4,441 nucleotides of DNA from a virus (taxonomy: Duplodnaviria > Heunggongvirae > Uroviricota > Caudoviricetes): the IMG/VR virus record IMGVR_UViG_2671180608_000007, positions 1-4,441 of that record. The stretch is one strand, 5' to 3'. The notes below the pieces were generated by a model, which did no database searches, was not told the DNA's origin, and saw nothing but the letters and a program-made list of their open reading frames with translations. Of the stretch, positions 1 to 4,441 are shown one piece after another. A program made the position numbers and the translations under genes. Each line of letters opens with the position of its first letter. The first letter of the stretch is position 1.

Positions 1-137
1 TAACAGGTGTCTGGAAATATAGGGGCAAATCCAGCGTTCATCAGCCCCCGCATTGCCGACAGGATCACAGACGGGGGGCGCAACTGGTTGTCGTTCAACT
101 GGCCCAGCTACCGTTCTTGTATCAGAGGTGTGGCTGC

Positions 138-1529
138 ATGACAACACCAGTCTGGCGTAATGATGACCTGGAAGGCGCTGTCATTGGCGCATTCTTTCTG
201 CGTGGGGCAGATCATGAAGTGATGGATATTCTGATCACACTACCGGCGGACATTTTTTCTGTACGAGCGTATCGGGATATCTACACAGGCATCTGCAGAC
301 AGGCCCGTGTTTCAGGAGTGATTGACCCCGTGCTGTTGTGTAATGAGATGCCGGAACTTGCCCCGGTGATTACTGATACCGGGCGTAAAACCTGGGTGAA
401 GTCTTCACTGGAGCACTATGTTGCAGCGTTGCGGCGCAATGCCGCACTGCGCGATGCAGAAAAAACACTGAATGAGGCGCTGCAGAAATTACGTGATGCG
501 CATACCTGTGAAGCAGCTGAAGATGCCCTGAAGGATGCGCAGAACATGATGGTCACACTGTCGACAGGAAAGGGCGTCATTCAGCCGGTACATATTGATG
601 ATGTGCTTCCGGAAGTGGTTGAGCGTGTTGAATGCCGGAATCAGGGGCTGGAGAAATCCAGGACGTTGATGACCGGTATTGATGAACTGGACGCAAAAAC
701 AGGCGGTATGGAGCCCGGAGACCTGGTATTCATTGCCGCCCGTCCTTCGATGGGGAAAACCGAACTTGCGCTGGACATCATCGACAAGGTGACTGAGCAG
801 GGGCATGGTGTGCTTCTGTTCACCATGGAGATGGCGAACATCCAGATTGGTGAACGTATGGTGTCTGCGGCTGGAGGGATGCCAGTATCACGCCTGAAAT
901 CTGTGGCTCACTTTGAAGATGAAGACTGGGCGCGTTTCTCACAAGGGGTGGGGCGGATGACCGGGCGCAATATCTGGATGGTGGACCAGGCGAACCTGAC
1001 CATTGATGAGATATGCGCAACAACGAAACACCATCTGATTAAACATCCGGAAACGGCGCTGGTGGTGGTTGATTATCTCGGGCTGATAAAAACCCGAACC
1101 ACGGGGCGTCATGACCTTGCCGTGGGTGAAATCTCAAAGGGGCTTAAAGGCCTGGCAAAATCCGGTGGTTTTCCGTTGATTGCGCTGAGCCAGCTCTCCC
1201 GCGGTGTGGAGTCCAGACCCAATAAACGTCCCATGAACTCAGACCTGAAAAATTCCGGAGAAATAGAGGCGGATGCAGACATCATTCTGATGCTTTACAG
1301 GGATGAAGTGTACAACCCGGATACACAGGCTACAGGCATAGCAGAAATTAATATCACGAAACAACGTAACGGTTCTCTGGGGACGATTTACCGGCGTTTT
1401 TATAACGGACATTTTCTGCCTGTGGACCAGGAAAGCGCACAGGTTCTTTCCACCCCAATGCGGCAGCCCCAGCCGCGCAGATACAGCAATACACGTACCG
1501 ACAGCAGTAAGATGGAGCGTTTCTTTTGA
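138..1529 (+). CDS. Replicative DNA helicase, DnaB family (phage-encoded, P22 gp12-like)
   Basis: Translation carries a DnaB-type Walker A (AARPSMGKTELALD), a Walker B-like hydrophobic stretch ending in D (LVVVDYLGLI) and C-terminal DnaB-like blocks (SGGFPLIALSQLSRGVESRPNKRPMNSDLKNSGEIEADADIILMLYRDEVY, ITKQRNG). Start chosen at ATG 138 because GAGGTG sits 8 nt upstream; the track's TTG at 117 is the alternative. The frame is open to the window edge, so a start further upstream cannot be excluded. Confidence 0.9.
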   Translation: MTTPVWRNDDLEGAVIGAFFLRGADHEVMDILITLPADIFSVRAYRDIYTGICRQARVSGVIDPVLLCNEMPELAPVITDTGRKTWVKSSLEHYVAALRRNAALRDAEKTLNEALQKLRDAHTCEAAEDALKDAQNMMVTLSTGKGVIQPVHIDDVLPEVVERVECRNQGLEKSRTLMTGIDELDAKTGGMEPGDLVFIAARPSMGKTELALDIIDKVTEQGHGVLLFTMEMANIQIGERMVSAAGGMPVSRLKSVAHFEDEDWARFSQGVGRMTGRNIWMVDQANLTIDEICATTKHHLIKHPETALVVVDYLGLIKTRTTGRHDLAVGEISKGLKGLAKSGGFPLIALSQLSRGVESRPNKRPMNSDLKNSGEIEADADIILMLYRDEVYNPDTQATGIAEINITKQRNGSLGTIYRRFYNGHFLPVDQESAQVLSTPMRQPQPRRYSNTRTDSSKMERFF

Positions 1530-1783
1530 ACAACCAGACAATGACTTTTACCTCTGAACAATTGCGTAAACACGCGCAGGAAATGTTGCGACAGGCGGAA
1601 CAACTGGAAAAAACAGGTGTAACAAAAGATGCCATTCGTCGGGATATGGTGCCAGCGCTCAGGGAACTGATGCAGGCGAAACATCGCGCACAAAAAGCGG
1701 TGGATGAGCTCGTTGATTGTGTGGCAGAGCTGGAAACCAAAGTTGGAAAGTTTGAAAAAATGGTGCAGGAGGTGCTGCGCTGA
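1526..1783 (+). CDS. Hypothetical small protein (85 aa, predicted coiled coil) in the nin-region position
   Basis: Uninterrupted ORF packed between helicase and rusA. Its TTG start overlaps the helicase stop (TTTTGA) and its stop overlaps the rusA start (TGATG), suggesting translational coupling. Alternative start is ATG 1541. Charged, heptad-like sequence (EQLRKHAQEMLRQAEQLEK...). No family recognised. Confidence 0.5.
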   Translation: MNNQTMTFTSEQLRKHAQEMLRQAEQLEKTGVTKDAIRRDMVPALRELMQAKHRAQKAVDELVDCVAELETKVGKFEKMVQEVLR

Positions 1784-2154
1784 TGCGCCATGAGTTTATT
1801 TTACCTTATCCGCCGACGGTGAATACTTACTGGCGACGTCGTGGCAGCACATATTTTGTATCAAAAGTTGGTGAGCGTTATCGCCGTGATGTGACGCTAA
1901 TTGTTCGCCAGCAGCGGCTGAAATTAAACCTGTCCGGAAGGCTGGCGATAAAGATTATTGCAGAGCCACCGGATAAGCGCCGTCGTGACCTGGACAATAT
2001 CCTGAAAGCACCACTGGATGCGCTGACGCATGCCGGACTACTCATAGACGACGAGCAGTTTGATGAAATCAATATTGTGCGCGGTCAGCTCGTTCCTGGT
2101 GGGCGACTGGGCGTGAAGATTTATGAAATCACAGGTGATAACGATGGCGCGTGA
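1783..2154 (+). CDS. rusA: Crossover junction endodeoxyribonuclease RusA (Holliday junction resolvase)
   Basis: 123-aa product with the RusA signature ([15 protein letters not shown] ... [30 protein letters not shown]) and the acidic residues of the DxD/D catalytic cluster. GGAGG lies about 10 nt upstream of ATG 1783. Sits just before Q, as in phage 82 and DLP12. Confidence 0.9.
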
Positions 2155-2530
2155 TATTCAGCAGGTTATGGAACGGTGGGGGGCTTGGGCTGCAAACACT
2201 CATGAAGATGTATCCTGGGCGTCGATCGCTGCTGGTTTTAAAGGGTTAATTCCGTCGAAAGTGAAATCACGCCCTCAGTGTTCTGATGATGATGCAATGA
2301 TAATTTGTGGCTGTATGGCCCGGTTGAACAAGAAAAATCAGGATTTGCACGATTTGCTGGTGGATTATTACGTAGGTGGAATGACTTTTATGAGTCTGGC
2401 ACGGAAACATGGGTGTTCGGATACCTGTATTGGCAAGCGCCTGCAGAAAGCGGAAGGGGTTATTGATGGCATGTTGATGATGCTTGATATCCGGCTGGAG
2501 ATGGACAGATACGTAGAACGAATTATGTAG
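2144..2530 (+). CDS. Late-gene antitermination protein, small Q-like family (QuuD-like)
   Basis: 128-aa product ([23 protein letters not shown]...[20 protein letters not shown]...[22 protein letters not shown]) closely resembles the small Q-like antiterminators of E. coli cryptic prophages (QuuD, recalled from memory). Start at ATG 2144 with AGGTGA 5 nt upstream; it overlaps the rusA stop (ATGGCGCGTGA). The track's 2123 ATG lies inside rusA and is the less likely start. Confidence 0.85.
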
Positions 2531-2534
2531 GTGC

Positions 2535-2564
2535 TTGACCAGACACATTGTCCGGGGCTATATT
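2535..2564 (+). promoter_or_regulatory. Candidate late promoter PR' (sigma70 -35 TTGACC / 18-bp spacer / -10 TATATT)
   Basis: TTGACC at 2535-2540 and TATATT at 2559-2564, beginning 5 bp after the Q stop codon. This is the canonical position of PR' relative to Q in lambdoid phages. Predicted transcription start is about 2571. Confidence 0.5.
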
Positions 2565-2571
2565 CCTCACG

Positions 2572-2589
2572 CGCCAGCAAAATCTGGCG
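2572..2589 (+). promoter_or_regulatory. Perfect 6-bp inverted repeat in the initial transcribed region (candidate qut / pause-site hairpin)
   Basis: CGCCAG-caaaat-CTGGCG at 2572-2577 and 2584-2589, directly after the predicted start. The loop CAAAAT is a weak -10-like hexamer of the kind that causes sigma-dependent pausing at lambdoid late promoters. Confidence 0.35.
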
Positions 2590-2625
2590 TCGGGATTGGA
2601 ACCCCGGATAGAGACCGCGACAGAC

Positions 2626-2650
2626 ACACGCCGCGAGCGTGTTTTTTATT
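2626..2650 (+). terminator. Intrinsic terminator (tR'-like) ending a ~75-nt leader transcript
   Basis: 6-bp GC-rich stem ACACGC / GCGTGT (2626-2631 and 2637-2642) with a 5-nt loop, followed by TTTTTTATT. Confidence 0.6.
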
Positions 2651-2775
2651 GTCGTATGCACGCGCACATCTGAATTATGGTGGGGCGCATGGGGGAGCTG
2701 AAAAGCTCGCCGGTCGGTTTCCCGGTAGTTCCAACCCTGTGCGTCTCACCACCCGATGATTGGAACCTGACGGTG

Positions 2776-2804
2776 TTGACAGTTTCAGGTTTGCAGTTTA
2801 CATT
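2776..2804 (+). promoter_or_regulatory. Candidate sigma70 promoter for the ORF6N gene (-35 TTGACA / 17-bp spacer / -10 TACATT)
   Basis: Consensus -35 TTGACA at 2776-2781 and a 4/6 -10 at 2799-2804. It is preceded by a 7-bp inverted repeat GTTCCAA / TTGGAAC (2728-2734 and 2760-2766). Confidence 0.3.
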
Positions 2805-3010
2805 TCCCCGCGGTGCTCAAAACACCTCGAAAGCGGTATCCACACCCGATAGCCATGTGGTTTTTTTGTGTCCAGAATTCTTGGTTTATGACCGGGTGTG
2901 CGGCTAATACAATACCAGCAATGGAAATACGCCCGCCGACTTTCGACGGTTTTGAGCGCCCGGTCACCCTCTCAAAAGGGGTAAATCAAAATATTCGAAA
3001 GGACATGTCT

Positions 3011-3574
3011 ATGAATCGCACGTCTATTGAAAAACTCCCGTCACTTACGCATAACCATCTTCCTGTCATGACAACAGAGCTGCTGGCTGATTTGTACGGA
3101 ACAGAGCGCCAGCGTTTGACAAACAATTTCAATCGAAACAAAGAACGGTTTATAGAAGGTAAACATTTTTTCCTGATAGAAGGTGATGCGTTACGAGAGT
3201 TGAAGAACGAAAACTCTTTAAGAGTTTCTGTGAAAATTGCCCGTAACGTTCGCTCCCTCATCCTCTGGACAGAACGTGGCGCAGCCCGTCACGCCAAAAT
3301 GCTCGAAACCGATCAGGCGTGGGAAGTGTTCGAAAAACTGGAAGACTGTTATTTCAACCAGAAACAGCCACCAGCGGCACAAAACACATCTATCGAAAAT
3401 GATGGATGCGCATTACTGAGCCACTTCGATAAACACGGTCAGGTTGAGTTCACGGAAAAGGTACCCGCCGATGCGATGGTATGTACTCTGGAACGGTTTA
3501 AATTTTATCTGGAGCAACATGGGTGGATCGTTGCCCGTAAAGAACAATTGGTGGAAAGGTTGATGCGGTTTTAA
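3011..3574 (+). CDS. ORF6N/KilA-N-like DNA-binding domain protein (phage antirepressor-like accessory gene), 187 aa
   Basis: The N-terminal 100 residues match the ORF6N-type pattern (LADLYGTERQRLTNNFNRNKERFIEGKHFFLIEGDALRELK...SLILWTERGAARHAKMLETDQAWEVFEKLED). The C-terminal 85 aa are unrecognised. Start at ATG 3011 with AAGGA 7 nt upstream; ATG 3005 is in frame. The track's 2813 start adds a Trp/Cys/Phe-rich, non-protein-like extension across the promoter and T-run and is judged unlikely. Confidence 0.7.
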   Translation: MNRTSIEKLPSLTHNHLPVMTTELLADLYGTERQRLTNNFNRNKERFIEGKHFFLIEGDALRELKNENSLRVSVKIARNVRSLILWTERGAARHAKMLETDQAWEVFEKLEDCYFNQKQPPAAQNTSIENDGCALLSHFDKHGQVEFTEKVPADAMVCTLERFKFYLEQHGWIVARKEQLVERLMRF

Positions 3575-3700
3575 TGAATGCAAAACCCCGGATGATCACC
3601 GAGGTTAATTTTATCGAGCGTGATTGCCGCTAATCGCCATCGCTCTGATTGAGCGTAAATCATTCAGGTTATTCAGTTCTTCCTTCTGCTCTCGCTGACG

Positions 3701-3871
3701 TCAATAAATCCCATCATTGCGATCAACCTCATCCTTAACCATTGATGCGAGCAGTTCTTCCAGTTTCTGCGCTGACAGCTTTACCTGGTGATCTTCAGCA
3801 TCTTCCCGGGCTATTGTGGTTCGCGCAGTGGCTGATTTTGCTGACATCACCACAGGGGGCAGACGGACCAT
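3701..3871 (-). CDS. Hypothetical small protein (56 aa), convergent with the ORF6N gene
   Basis: ATG at 3871 with GGAGG 10 nt upstream (CCTCC at 3882-3886 on the + strand). Hydrophilic, helix-like product (MVRLPPVVMSAKSATARTTIAREDAEDHQVKLSAQKLEELLASMVKDEVDRNDGIY). The track's longer form from TTG 3982 would add a hydrophobic segment (LSIVVVIFALICSGG) and start 4 nt after the tfa-remnant stop. No family recognised. Confidence 0.35.
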   Translation of the reverse strand: MVRLPPVVMSAKSATARTTIAREDAEDHQVKLSAQKLEELLASMVKDEVDRNDGIY

Positions 3872-3985
3872 TGAACCATGGCCTCCGGAACAAATAAGGG
3901 CAAAAATAACAACCACTATCGAAAGCTCACAAACTAACCGCAGCACGTTCCTGCATACGACGTGTCTGCGGCATAATCCCAATGA

Positions 3986-4219
3986 TTACTCCCTGACAGG
4001 ATTTGCAGGCCACTCAATATCAGGTGCAGTTGATGTATCAACACGATTCAACAATACCCGATATTTATTCCATGCCTCCAGCAACGATCTTTCTTCCTCC
4101 GTTGCGATTTCCAGATCTACAGCATCCTGCAGTGGCGCAATATACTCACTAAATTCCTGGATGTAGAACTGTGTGGTGACGGTCTTCCAGCCATTCGGCT
4201 CCTGCTGTATCGAAGCATA
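3986..4219 (-). pseudogene. tfa: Tail fibre assembly protein (Tfa) 3' remnant, C-terminal 77 codons with no start codon
   Basis: Hand translation of the minus strand gives ...[53 protein letters not shown] then TAA (3988-3986), which is the conserved C-terminus of lambdoid/e14/Rac-type Tfa proteins. The frame is closed by an in-frame TAG at 4222-4220 with no ATG, GTG or TTG codon in between, so it is a 5'-truncated fragment. It is absent from the supplied ORF track. Confidence 0.75.
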
Positions 4220-4240
4220 CTAGGCTATTTCAATATCGCT

Positions 4241-4255
4241 ATGCTGCGGCAGCAT
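4241..4255. repeat. 15-bp palindrome ATGCTGC-G-GCAGCAT (candidate operator or hairpin)
   Basis: Perfect 7-bp arms around a central G, about 10 bp upstream of promoter-like hexamers and about 20 bp beyond the tfa truncation point. Confidence 0.4.
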
Positions 4256-4323
4256 TTAACCCCTTGTAATTCATCGCCATAATTGATTTAATTCACAAAT
4301 AAAACTATAACATGGTGAAATCA

Positions 4324-4383
4324 ATGAAAACAAACACAGATGATGGGGCTAAAATTTACACACCACTTACCCTAAAGCTTTAA
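4324..4383 (+). CDS. Very short ORF (19 aa, MKTNTDDGAKIYTPLTLKL) inside a promoter-to-terminator mini-unit; possibly the body of a small RNA instead
   Basis: ATG 4324 with GGTGA 5 nt upstream; an in-frame ATG at 4312 would give 23 aa. Promoter-like hexamers lie upstream (TTGTAA 4264-4269 with TTTAAT 4287-4292, or TTGATT 4283-4288 with TATAAC 4306-4311) and the intrinsic terminator lies 11 nt downstream. The product is hydrophilic, so not a type I toxin. Confidence 0.2.
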   Translation: MKTNTDDGAKIYTPLTLKL

Positions 4384-4393
4384 CACACAGCTT

Positions 4394-4420
4394 AAACCCG
4401 CCGATGAGCGGGTTTTTTTA
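4394..4420 (+). terminator. Intrinsic (rho-independent) terminator
   Basis: Stem CCCGC / GCGGG (4397-4401 and 4408-4412), extendable by A:T pairs, with loop CGATGA and followed by seven T (4413-4419). The + strand orientation is favoured because the minus-strand side has only a short T tract. Confidence 0.6.
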
Positions 4421-4441
4421 TACCTGAAAAACGGCACAGGA

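Follow-up and report, generated by a model that had tools for sequence, protein, structure and literature searches.

The 4,441 nucleotides (nt) analysed here, called the window throughout, are positions 1 to 4,441 of IMG/VR record IMGVR_UViG_2671180608_000007, from a virus of the Caudoviricetes. Downstream of the Q antiterminator gene of this window lies an open reading frame (ORF) of 187 amino acids (aa) with an ORF6N domain. The region between Q and this ORF is 480 nt long and holds two antisense-RNA control modules in tandem. The ORF is read here as an antirepressor gene of the AnrP family, which is known from prophage Gifsy-1, and as one that is normally silenced by two tandem antisense-RNA locks; the probability of this reading is put at roughly three in four. 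The gene and the features upstream of it are as follows, with Rfam gathering scores in brackets.

3011-3574, plus strand: predicted AnrP-family antirepressor gene, 187 aa (ORF6N, PHROG 2379, AnrP homology)
2535-2564, plus strand: module 1 promoter, counterpart of PisrK, TTGACC-18-TATATT, aligning with the Gifsy-1, Nil2, EC12 and ST131 leaders
2558-2610, plus strand: c4-a1b1 RNA, Rfam 50.1 bits (46.7)
2571-2647, plus strand: isrK RNA, Rfam 77.5 bits (50)
2596-2602, plus strand: isrK loop box TTGGAAC
2626-2642, plus strand: isrK intrinsic terminator, with a T-run after it
2673-2756, plus strand: C4-family antisense RNA, counterpart of Gifsy-1 STnc1160, Rfam 71 bits (45)
2677-2907, plus strand: upstream ORF of 76 codons, counterpart of Gifsy-1 orf45, with in-frame AUGs at 2677 and 2689 (+107 and +119 of isrK)
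2776-2804, plus strand: module 2 promoter, TTGACA (2776-2781)-17-TACATT, its position conserved in EC12, Nil2 antB and at least eight further species
2815-2823, plus strand: upstream target or decoy box a1, GCTCAAAAC, in the loop of a GGUG/CACC hairpin and complementary to Xcc1 box a'
2827-2833, plus strand: upstream target or decoy box b1, TCGAAAG, complementary to Xcc1 box b'
2840-2867, plus strand: hairpin CCACA/TGTGG followed by T7, acting as an intrinsic terminator or attenuator and leaving a leader RNA about 55 nt long
2890-2973, plus strand: sRNA-Xcc1-family RNA with outer stem, two hairpins and CACCC tail, 77.4 bits (53), model positions 1-87 of 87
2940-2946, plus strand: Xcc1 box b', CTTTCGA, in the second hairpin loop
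2949-2957, plus strand: Xcc1 box a', GTTTTGAGC, in the junction
2986-2991, plus strand: downstream operator box a2, TCAAAA
2995-3001, plus strand: downstream operator box b2, TCGAAAG, overlapping the Shine-Dalgarno sequence AAGGA (2999-3003)

The gene starts at ATG 3011, with the Shine-Dalgarno (SD) sequence at 2999-3003 lying 7 nt upstream. An alternative start at ATG 3005 has no usable spacing. An in-frame extension to GTG 2813 (253 aa) was also rejected: it would take the frame across both terminator and Xcc1 RNA, the homologues have lengths of 185-188 aa, and profile alignments begin at residue 2. Pfam ORF6N (PF10543) matches residues 13-97 (3047-3301) with 74.4 bits against a gathering cut-off of 27.8 (E = 8.8e-21) and spans profile positions 5-86 of 86. 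This bears out the ORF6N domain proposed in the original prediction, which had been made from the sequence without database searches. The KilA-N-type label given along with it is not upheld: Pfam KilA-N (PF04383) has no match to the protein at E <= 0.1 in the Pfam scan, and the link exists only at the level of fold, through the nearest viral fold matches (BFVD), which are named KilA-N or antirepressor proteins. The ANT, AntA and Bro-N models likewise had no match in that scan. The guanine-plus-cytosine content is 0.45-0.47 over the ORF and 0.50-0.54 over the replication genes, as had been judged by eye.

Residues from about 100 to 187 have no Pfam match, and NCBIfam has no model for the whole protein or for its C-terminal domain. 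The C-terminal domain, which had been called unrecognised, is indeed so in these two databases, but PHROG 2379 ('anti-repressor') aligns along the full 187 residues (E = 4.4e-85). Further PHROG matches to the N-terminal domain belong to anti-repressor families in nearly all cases. A BLASTP alignment to Gifsy-1 AnrP (STM2616/SL2578, also 187 aa) gave 49% identity over 184 aa (E = 6e-58) and reached through the C-terminal domain. By its sequence, the protein is a homologue of AnrP and an unremarkable member of a known family, which thousands of enterobacterial prophages carry. The 'unknown mechanism' first assigned to it has to be revised, the protein being a full-length homologue of the experimentally tested AnrP. 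Conservation within the family is strong: 26 sequences at 64-94% identity share 60 invariant columns.

In the AlphaFold model, residues 10-116 are good, residues 117-130 form a disordered linker, and the C-terminal domain (residues 118-187; 3362-3571) adopts a beta-beta-alpha-alpha arrangement at moderate confidence. A sequence search against solved structures gave no match for the protein, and Foldseek against the PDB returned nothing below E 0.6. The C-terminal domain is 90% identical to that of an Escherichia coli ST131 Rha-family protein, which is itself sited behind an isrK-C4 leader. In an exhaustive HMMER search, the 70-aa domain was found in 11 clusters at 50% identity among 1.84 billion representatives, joined to ORF6N, Phage_pRha or AntA N-terminal domains; one of these clusters (P0143, 731 aa) was set aside as a low-complexity artefact. 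A word-indexed homologue search with the C-terminal domain alone yielded only 17 hits, mostly fragments. The same C-terminal domain on ORF6N, pRha or AntA N-terminal domains is a case of the domain-swapping 'Bro network' (PMC10111431), special in that its C-terminal domain is rare and without a Pfam model.

The region upstream of the gene had been taken for a plain PR'/tR' leader. Instead, it matches isrK, c4-a1b1, C4 and sRNA-Xcc1 above their Rfam gathering scores. In module 1, the C4 box GTTCCAA (2728-2734) is complementary to TTGGAAC at both 2596-2602 and 2760-2766. Gifsy-1 carries ACGCCAA and TTGGCGT at the corresponding positions, and the boxes of the two leaders therefore covary. The leaders diverge at about 2756-2767, after which the window goes on with 255 nt of the other module. 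Gifsy-1 has a second C4-type box adjoining its SD (ATCACCG); none is found in the window past 2766, because module 2 begins there. With its stop codon at 2905-2907, the upstream ORF ends 104 nt short of the antirepressor ATG at 3011, and translational coupling through AUGA, in the manner of Gifsy-1, is therefore impossible here. This ORF was considered as a conserved protein and rejected; it has no PHROG match, and its length and sequence vary among loci (44 aa in EC12, 45 aa in Gifsy-1) while the RNA is conserved.

The PisrK counterpart was also considered as the cognate late promoter PR' and rejected as the simple reading, since PisrK and isrK follow an unrelated Q in Gifsy-1 and occur without a nearby Q in phage Nil2 and in the E. 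coli ST131 locus, and since phage production driven by AnrP in Gifsy-1 is independent of PisrK. No similarity was found between the Q of the window and Gifsy-1 AntQ. Judged from these arrangements, neither promoter in 2531-3010 is tied to the Q of the window. In the ST131 locus (L002), a coding sequence annotated as 'ash family protein' (4349-4624) spans the isrK (4385-4459) and C4 (4483-4570) RNA genes, and Pfam Phage_ASH is also found fused before AntA in cluster P0146. Much of what is classed as the Ash protein family may be a reading frame that runs across the C4/CI RNA region.

Module 2 begins with the TTGACA that had been proposed as a promoter of the ORF itself. Taken alone, this promoter is not above chance, the window containing 4 promoter-like sites against 2.9 +/- 1.7 in shuffles. 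In at least eight other species, homologous cassettes nevertheless have a promoter of the form TTGAC(A/G/T)-~17 nt-TAnnnT, equally far from the leader. The promoter proposed earlier is thus present and conserved across species, but it heads a module with an antisense RNA complementary to the ribosome-binding site of the ORF, and free expression of the gene is not implied. The stem of the terminator that follows shows compensatory changes in other loci (CCGC/GCGG, CCAAC/GTTGG and GCCGCT/AGCGGC). The duplex of Xcc1 with a1b1 was calculated at -35.8 kcal/mol, a value equalled by 0 of 500 shuffles, and that with a2b2/SD at -16.6 kcal/mol. Module 2 is also found ahead of the ORF6N gene in E. coli EC12 and ahead of antB in phage Nil2, where the b boxes read TCAGTAG and CAAGTAG respectively and are alike in all three positions. 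In Xanthomonas, Xcc1 is a stable 88-nt species (PMC2996969). In E. coli EDL933, about 40,000 RNA-seq reads come from an Xcc1-family RNA whose ribosome coverage is 0.02, which marks it as abundant and untranslated (PMC5331693).

The RNAs upstream of ORF6N genes were surveyed in one genome per species, with an Rfam scan directly upstream of the ORF6N homologue at 80 loci. isrK and/or C4 were found in 20 of these loci, sRNA-Xcc1 in 28, at 40-55 nt from the gene, and P22-type sar, on the opposite strand, in two. Altogether, C4/isrK, Xcc1 or sar lies directly upstream in 50 of the 80. The two sar matches are on the minus strand in Pectobacterium brasiliense (L067, 2381-2452) and Xenorhabdus yunnanensis (L084, 2399-2467), and sar is, to judge from these positions, a third kind of RNA lock on the ORF6N gene family.

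Covariation of the boxes was examined in 30 loci, comprising 27 Xcc1-led loci of the survey together with the window, EC12 and Nil2, and b1 was defined by position alone, immediately 5' of an invariant CGG. The reverse complement of the b1 6-mer was present in the Xcc1 of the same locus in 28 of 30 cases, always in the loop of hairpin 2, compared with 11 of 850 cross-locus pairs (1.3%). The b1 6-mer itself recurred at the SD in 27 of 30 loci, compared with 14 of 850 cross-locus pairs (1.6%). Among the 30 loci there are 22 distinct b1 6-mers, and the box variants are spread over Enterobacterales, Chromatiaceae and others. The diversification of the boxes into at least 22 specificities would give each cassette a private address. 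In Entomohabitans teleogrylli (L018, 2049-2268), b1 is CAAACAG and matches neither b' of its own Xcc1 nor b2, which are of the TCGAAAG type; a second Xcc1 copy lies at 2708-2792. Its leader looks like a hybrid from recombination between cassettes of different specificity.

In the mechanism proposed, lock 1 would be of the Gifsy-1/P1 type and consist of PisrK, the isrK (a1b1) RNA with its terminator and the C4-family RNA. Its 3' end, which in Gifsy-1 comprises the SD-adjoining box and the orf45/anrP junction, has been replaced by lock 2. In lock 2, the promoter at 2776-2804 would yield a short terminated RNA with boxes a1 and b1. Transcripts that read through would include the Xcc1-family RNA, and this RNA is probably processed and builds up in a stable form. 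The hairpin 2 loop (b') and the junction (a') of Xcc1 would then pair with b2 and a2 of the mRNA, covering the SD and blocking translation. The short a1b1 RNA, as a far stronger partner of Xcc1, would act as a decoy that titrates Xcc1 and relieves the block, as IsrK does for anrP. Once made, the antirepressor most likely inactivates a CI-type prophage repressor and so leads to induction. Since the prophage of the window is a remnant without a repressor of its own, only the repressor of some other lambdoid phage, resident or incoming, could serve as the target.

The closest known arrangement is isrK-orf45-anrP of Gifsy-1. The order of Q, PisrK, isrK with its terminator, C4-like RNA (STnc1160) and a 187-aa ORF6N protein is the same in both, the C4-like RNA is overlapped in both by a short ORF whose two AUGs lie at +107 and +119, and the antirepressor gene lies downstream of Q and upstream of the lysis genes. 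Apart from the unrelated Q protein, Gifsy-1 differs in that orf45 and anrP overlap at stop and start (AUGA), whereas the 76-codon ORF of the window does not overlap the gene. It also has no complete second module (promoter, a1b1 leader, terminator, sRNA-Xcc1 and a2b2/SD) between C4 and the gene, and carries isrJ downstream, of which there is none in the window. Transcription of anrP starts from PisrK, and its translation takes place only with IsrK in trans and when orf45 is translated; expression of AnrP raises the mRNA of the antQ operon and induces Gifsy-1, and a Gifsy-1 with PisrK deleted still yields phage upon AnrP expression (Hershko-Shalev et al., 2016; PMC4825925).

The immI operon (c4-icd-ant) of phages P1 and P7, described in outline in PMC8201110, is also similar. 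There too, the antirepressor gene follows a structured RNA that is processed out of their common transcript; two elements of this RNA pair with a1/b1 upstream and a2/b2 downstream, the downstream site covering a ribosome-binding site. The C4 and c4-a1b1 models of Rfam match the window, and lock 2 repeats the logic with another RNA family. For the C4 RNA of the window, complementary boxes are present on both sides, as in P1, but the downstream box is not at the ribosome-binding site of the controlled frame. An icd-like coupled gene is absent here, the antirepressor comes from another family, and P1 is a plasmid prophage whereas the element of the window is a lambdoid prophage. Details of c4 control in P1 are reportedly to be found in work of Citron and Schuster from 1990. 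Antirepressor or immunity functions are under RNA control in P22 immI (sar-ant) and P4 (CI RNA, seqA and seqC) as well. In P22, sar is transcribed from the opposite strand and is absent from the window; the CI RNA of P4 works via transcription termination on replication genes. The AnrP paper likens IsrK to P4 seqA (PMC4825925).

In Xanthomonas campestris, Xcc1 has been described as an integron-encoded, trans-acting small RNA (sRNA). The copy in the window is a full-length match to the covariance model of this family (RF02221) and differs from that description in lying upstream of an ORF6N gene with covarying boxes on its flanks. Such ORF6N-linked copies point to a cis-linked, c4-like repressor role. 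In the literature search, this role for sRNA-Xcc1 was found only hinted at, not described: a paper on APSE phages merely notes sRNA-Xcc1 upstream of an ORF6N gene, and a preprint on Xanthomonas integrons places it upstream of symE. Tables for Xylella fastidiosa (PMC12189769) list, for strain Temecula1, a single genomic island with five sRNA-Xcc1 copies at intervals of about 385 nt, and for strain De Donno an Xcc1 directly upstream of an isrK-C4 pair, the opposite order to that of the window. On balance, sRNA-Xcc1 would seem to be a third immunity RNA family of the c4/CI type rather than a free-standing virulence sRNA. It would be made from the leader, block the ribosome-binding site of the guarded gene with two boxes, be opposed by a short, terminated decoy RNA in which these boxes are copied almost perfectly, and exist in at least 22 specificities; here it would stand behind an intact isrK-C4 lock and form a two-stage gate with it. 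As read here, the Xcc1 lock would be a form of c4-type control not seen before; the protein itself comes from a known kind of gene.

The remainder of the window consists of the following features.

117-1529, plus strand: DnaB-like helicase gene
1526-1783, plus strand: 85-aa coiled ORF between the DnaB-like gene and RusA
1783-2154, plus strand: RusA gene
2123-2530, plus strand: Q antiterminator gene (PF06530, E = 2.7e-52)
3575-4383, no strand: mosaic segment of 809 nt outside the regulatory unit, with tail-fibre-assembly remnants (minus strand), an IS009-like match and a methyltransferase gene of which the first 70 nt are present
4394-4415, plus strand: intrinsic terminator past the cassette, common to the Shigella sonnei and EC12 loci

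Eight chromosomal loci of S. sonnei match window 1-3574 at 99.86% identity (97.9% in one of them, L008). The exact 187-aa protein is recorded in 3937 blocks of an assembly collection, and the 99%-identity protein cluster carries the name Shigella sonnei. Lysis genes are absent from the window, and the ORF6N gene had been thought to occupy the slot after Q where the lysis cassette should follow. In the S. sonnei loci, holin, lysozyme, Rz, HNH and terminase genes begin about 1.2 kb past the ORF6N ORF. By comparison with these loci, the gene is therefore located between Q and the lysis cassette, as a gene in the accessory slot would be, and does not substitute for the cassette. This position, the ORF6N domain and the gene's own promoter support the earlier view of a prophage accessory regulator. 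tRNA genes downstream of Q, as in Shiga-toxin (Stx) phages, were searched for in the window and none was found.

The element is a prophage remnant without repressor, cro or O region. Window 1-22 is the end of an IS3-family element, also present in the S. sonnei loci, and the immunity region is missing because this element abuts the DnaB-like gene. On the other side of the prophage, the portal gene is cut by an IS4-family element (L004, 5784-7012). The 85-aa ORF at 1526-1783 aligns solely to the final 83 positions of phrog_2565 (204 aa) and may be a truncated or split gene.

The 809-nt mosaic segment behind the ORF6N gene stands in place of 65 nt of the other S. sonnei loci and of E. coli EC12. 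Behind a Rha-type antirepressor gene that adjoins trpA in E. coli ST131 lies DNA with 97-99% identity to this segment. All five mismatches between the window and the S. sonnei loci fall at 3520-3557, which places the left crossover inside the region coding for the C-terminal domain. Homology is absent at the right joint, 4383/4384. On the minus strand, at 3701-3982 and 4029-4232 respectively, lie a 93-aa ORF and a match to IS009 (RF02111). The ORF matches the C-terminal part of the tail-fibre PHROGs phrog_7703 and phrog_1141. The IS009 match, like the ORF within tail-fibre-assembly remnants, reached 110.8 bits, slightly below the gathering score of 117, and members of the IS009 family may simply be part of prophage tail-fibre-assembly genes. 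A weak Trp_leader match at 4335-4421 (E = 0.032, 26.1 bits against a gathering score of 41) takes in the terminator at 4394-4415 and is most likely a chance match to its hairpin.

Several points weigh against an antirepressor under two RNA locks. The case for both the ORF protein and the leader RNAs is computational. The processing of Xcc1 and the direction of its effect are assumed by analogy with P1 c4, the c4 RNA being processed by RNase P. The a2/b2 duplex is modest and was matched by 8 of 500 shuffles, and the model of the C-terminal domain has a pLDDT (predicted local distance difference test) of 60-74 and no structural match. As the remnant has no repressor gene of its own, a cognate target in the host is hypothetical. 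The AnrP study did not show direct repressor binding (PMC4825925), and sRNA-Xcc1 has been published as a trans-acting sRNA. Alternatively, the protein could be a transcription factor that acts directly at early or late promoters by DNA binding through its ORF6N (KilA-N-like) domain, and not by binding a repressor. The fold hints leave room for this, and it is considered rather unlikely.

That the gene no longer functions in this host and is carried along clonally as a leftover of a decayed prophage, with its locks irrelevant, is quite unlikely. The IS elements that cut the prophage on both sides, the loss of the immunity region, O and most structural genes, and the mosaic segment directly behind the gene would all agree with decay, and as S. 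sonnei is clonal, identity across assemblies says little about selection. However, the ORF is intact, and so are the promoter, terminator and RNA of each module and every box complementarity, and the family is strongly conserved. Antirepressors can also act in trans on other prophages, as reportedly described for those of Gifsy phages by Lemire et al. in 2011. The original prediction had further suggested an anti-phage factor, responsible for abortive infection or superinfection exclusion and expressed from the resident prophage, and this is very improbable. The gene has its own promoter and occupies a slot known for accessory genes, and in PADLOC the models of candidate system PDC-S05 weakly match residues 19-115 (best E = 1.4e-7). 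These matches are limited to the generic ORF6N domain, PDC-S05 is itself an untested candidate, and partner genes are absent. Moreover, the closest tested relative induces a prophage and does not block phage, and an RNA complementary to the SD argues for silence in the lysogen, a poor fit to a constitutive defence gene.

The protein adds little to what is known, being another AnrP/ORF6N antirepressor. The stretch after Q, which resembles a late-promoter leader, is a stack of antisense-RNA switches, and this matters for both annotation and regulation. Published work has so far regarded sRNA-Xcc1 as a virulence sRNA that acts in trans. Should it instead be a c4-like operator RNA, the many copies known from Xanthomonas, Xylella, APSE phages and Stx phages would be locks on antirepressor or toxin genes, and the variable Xcc1 boxes would predict which prophages cross-talk during induction.

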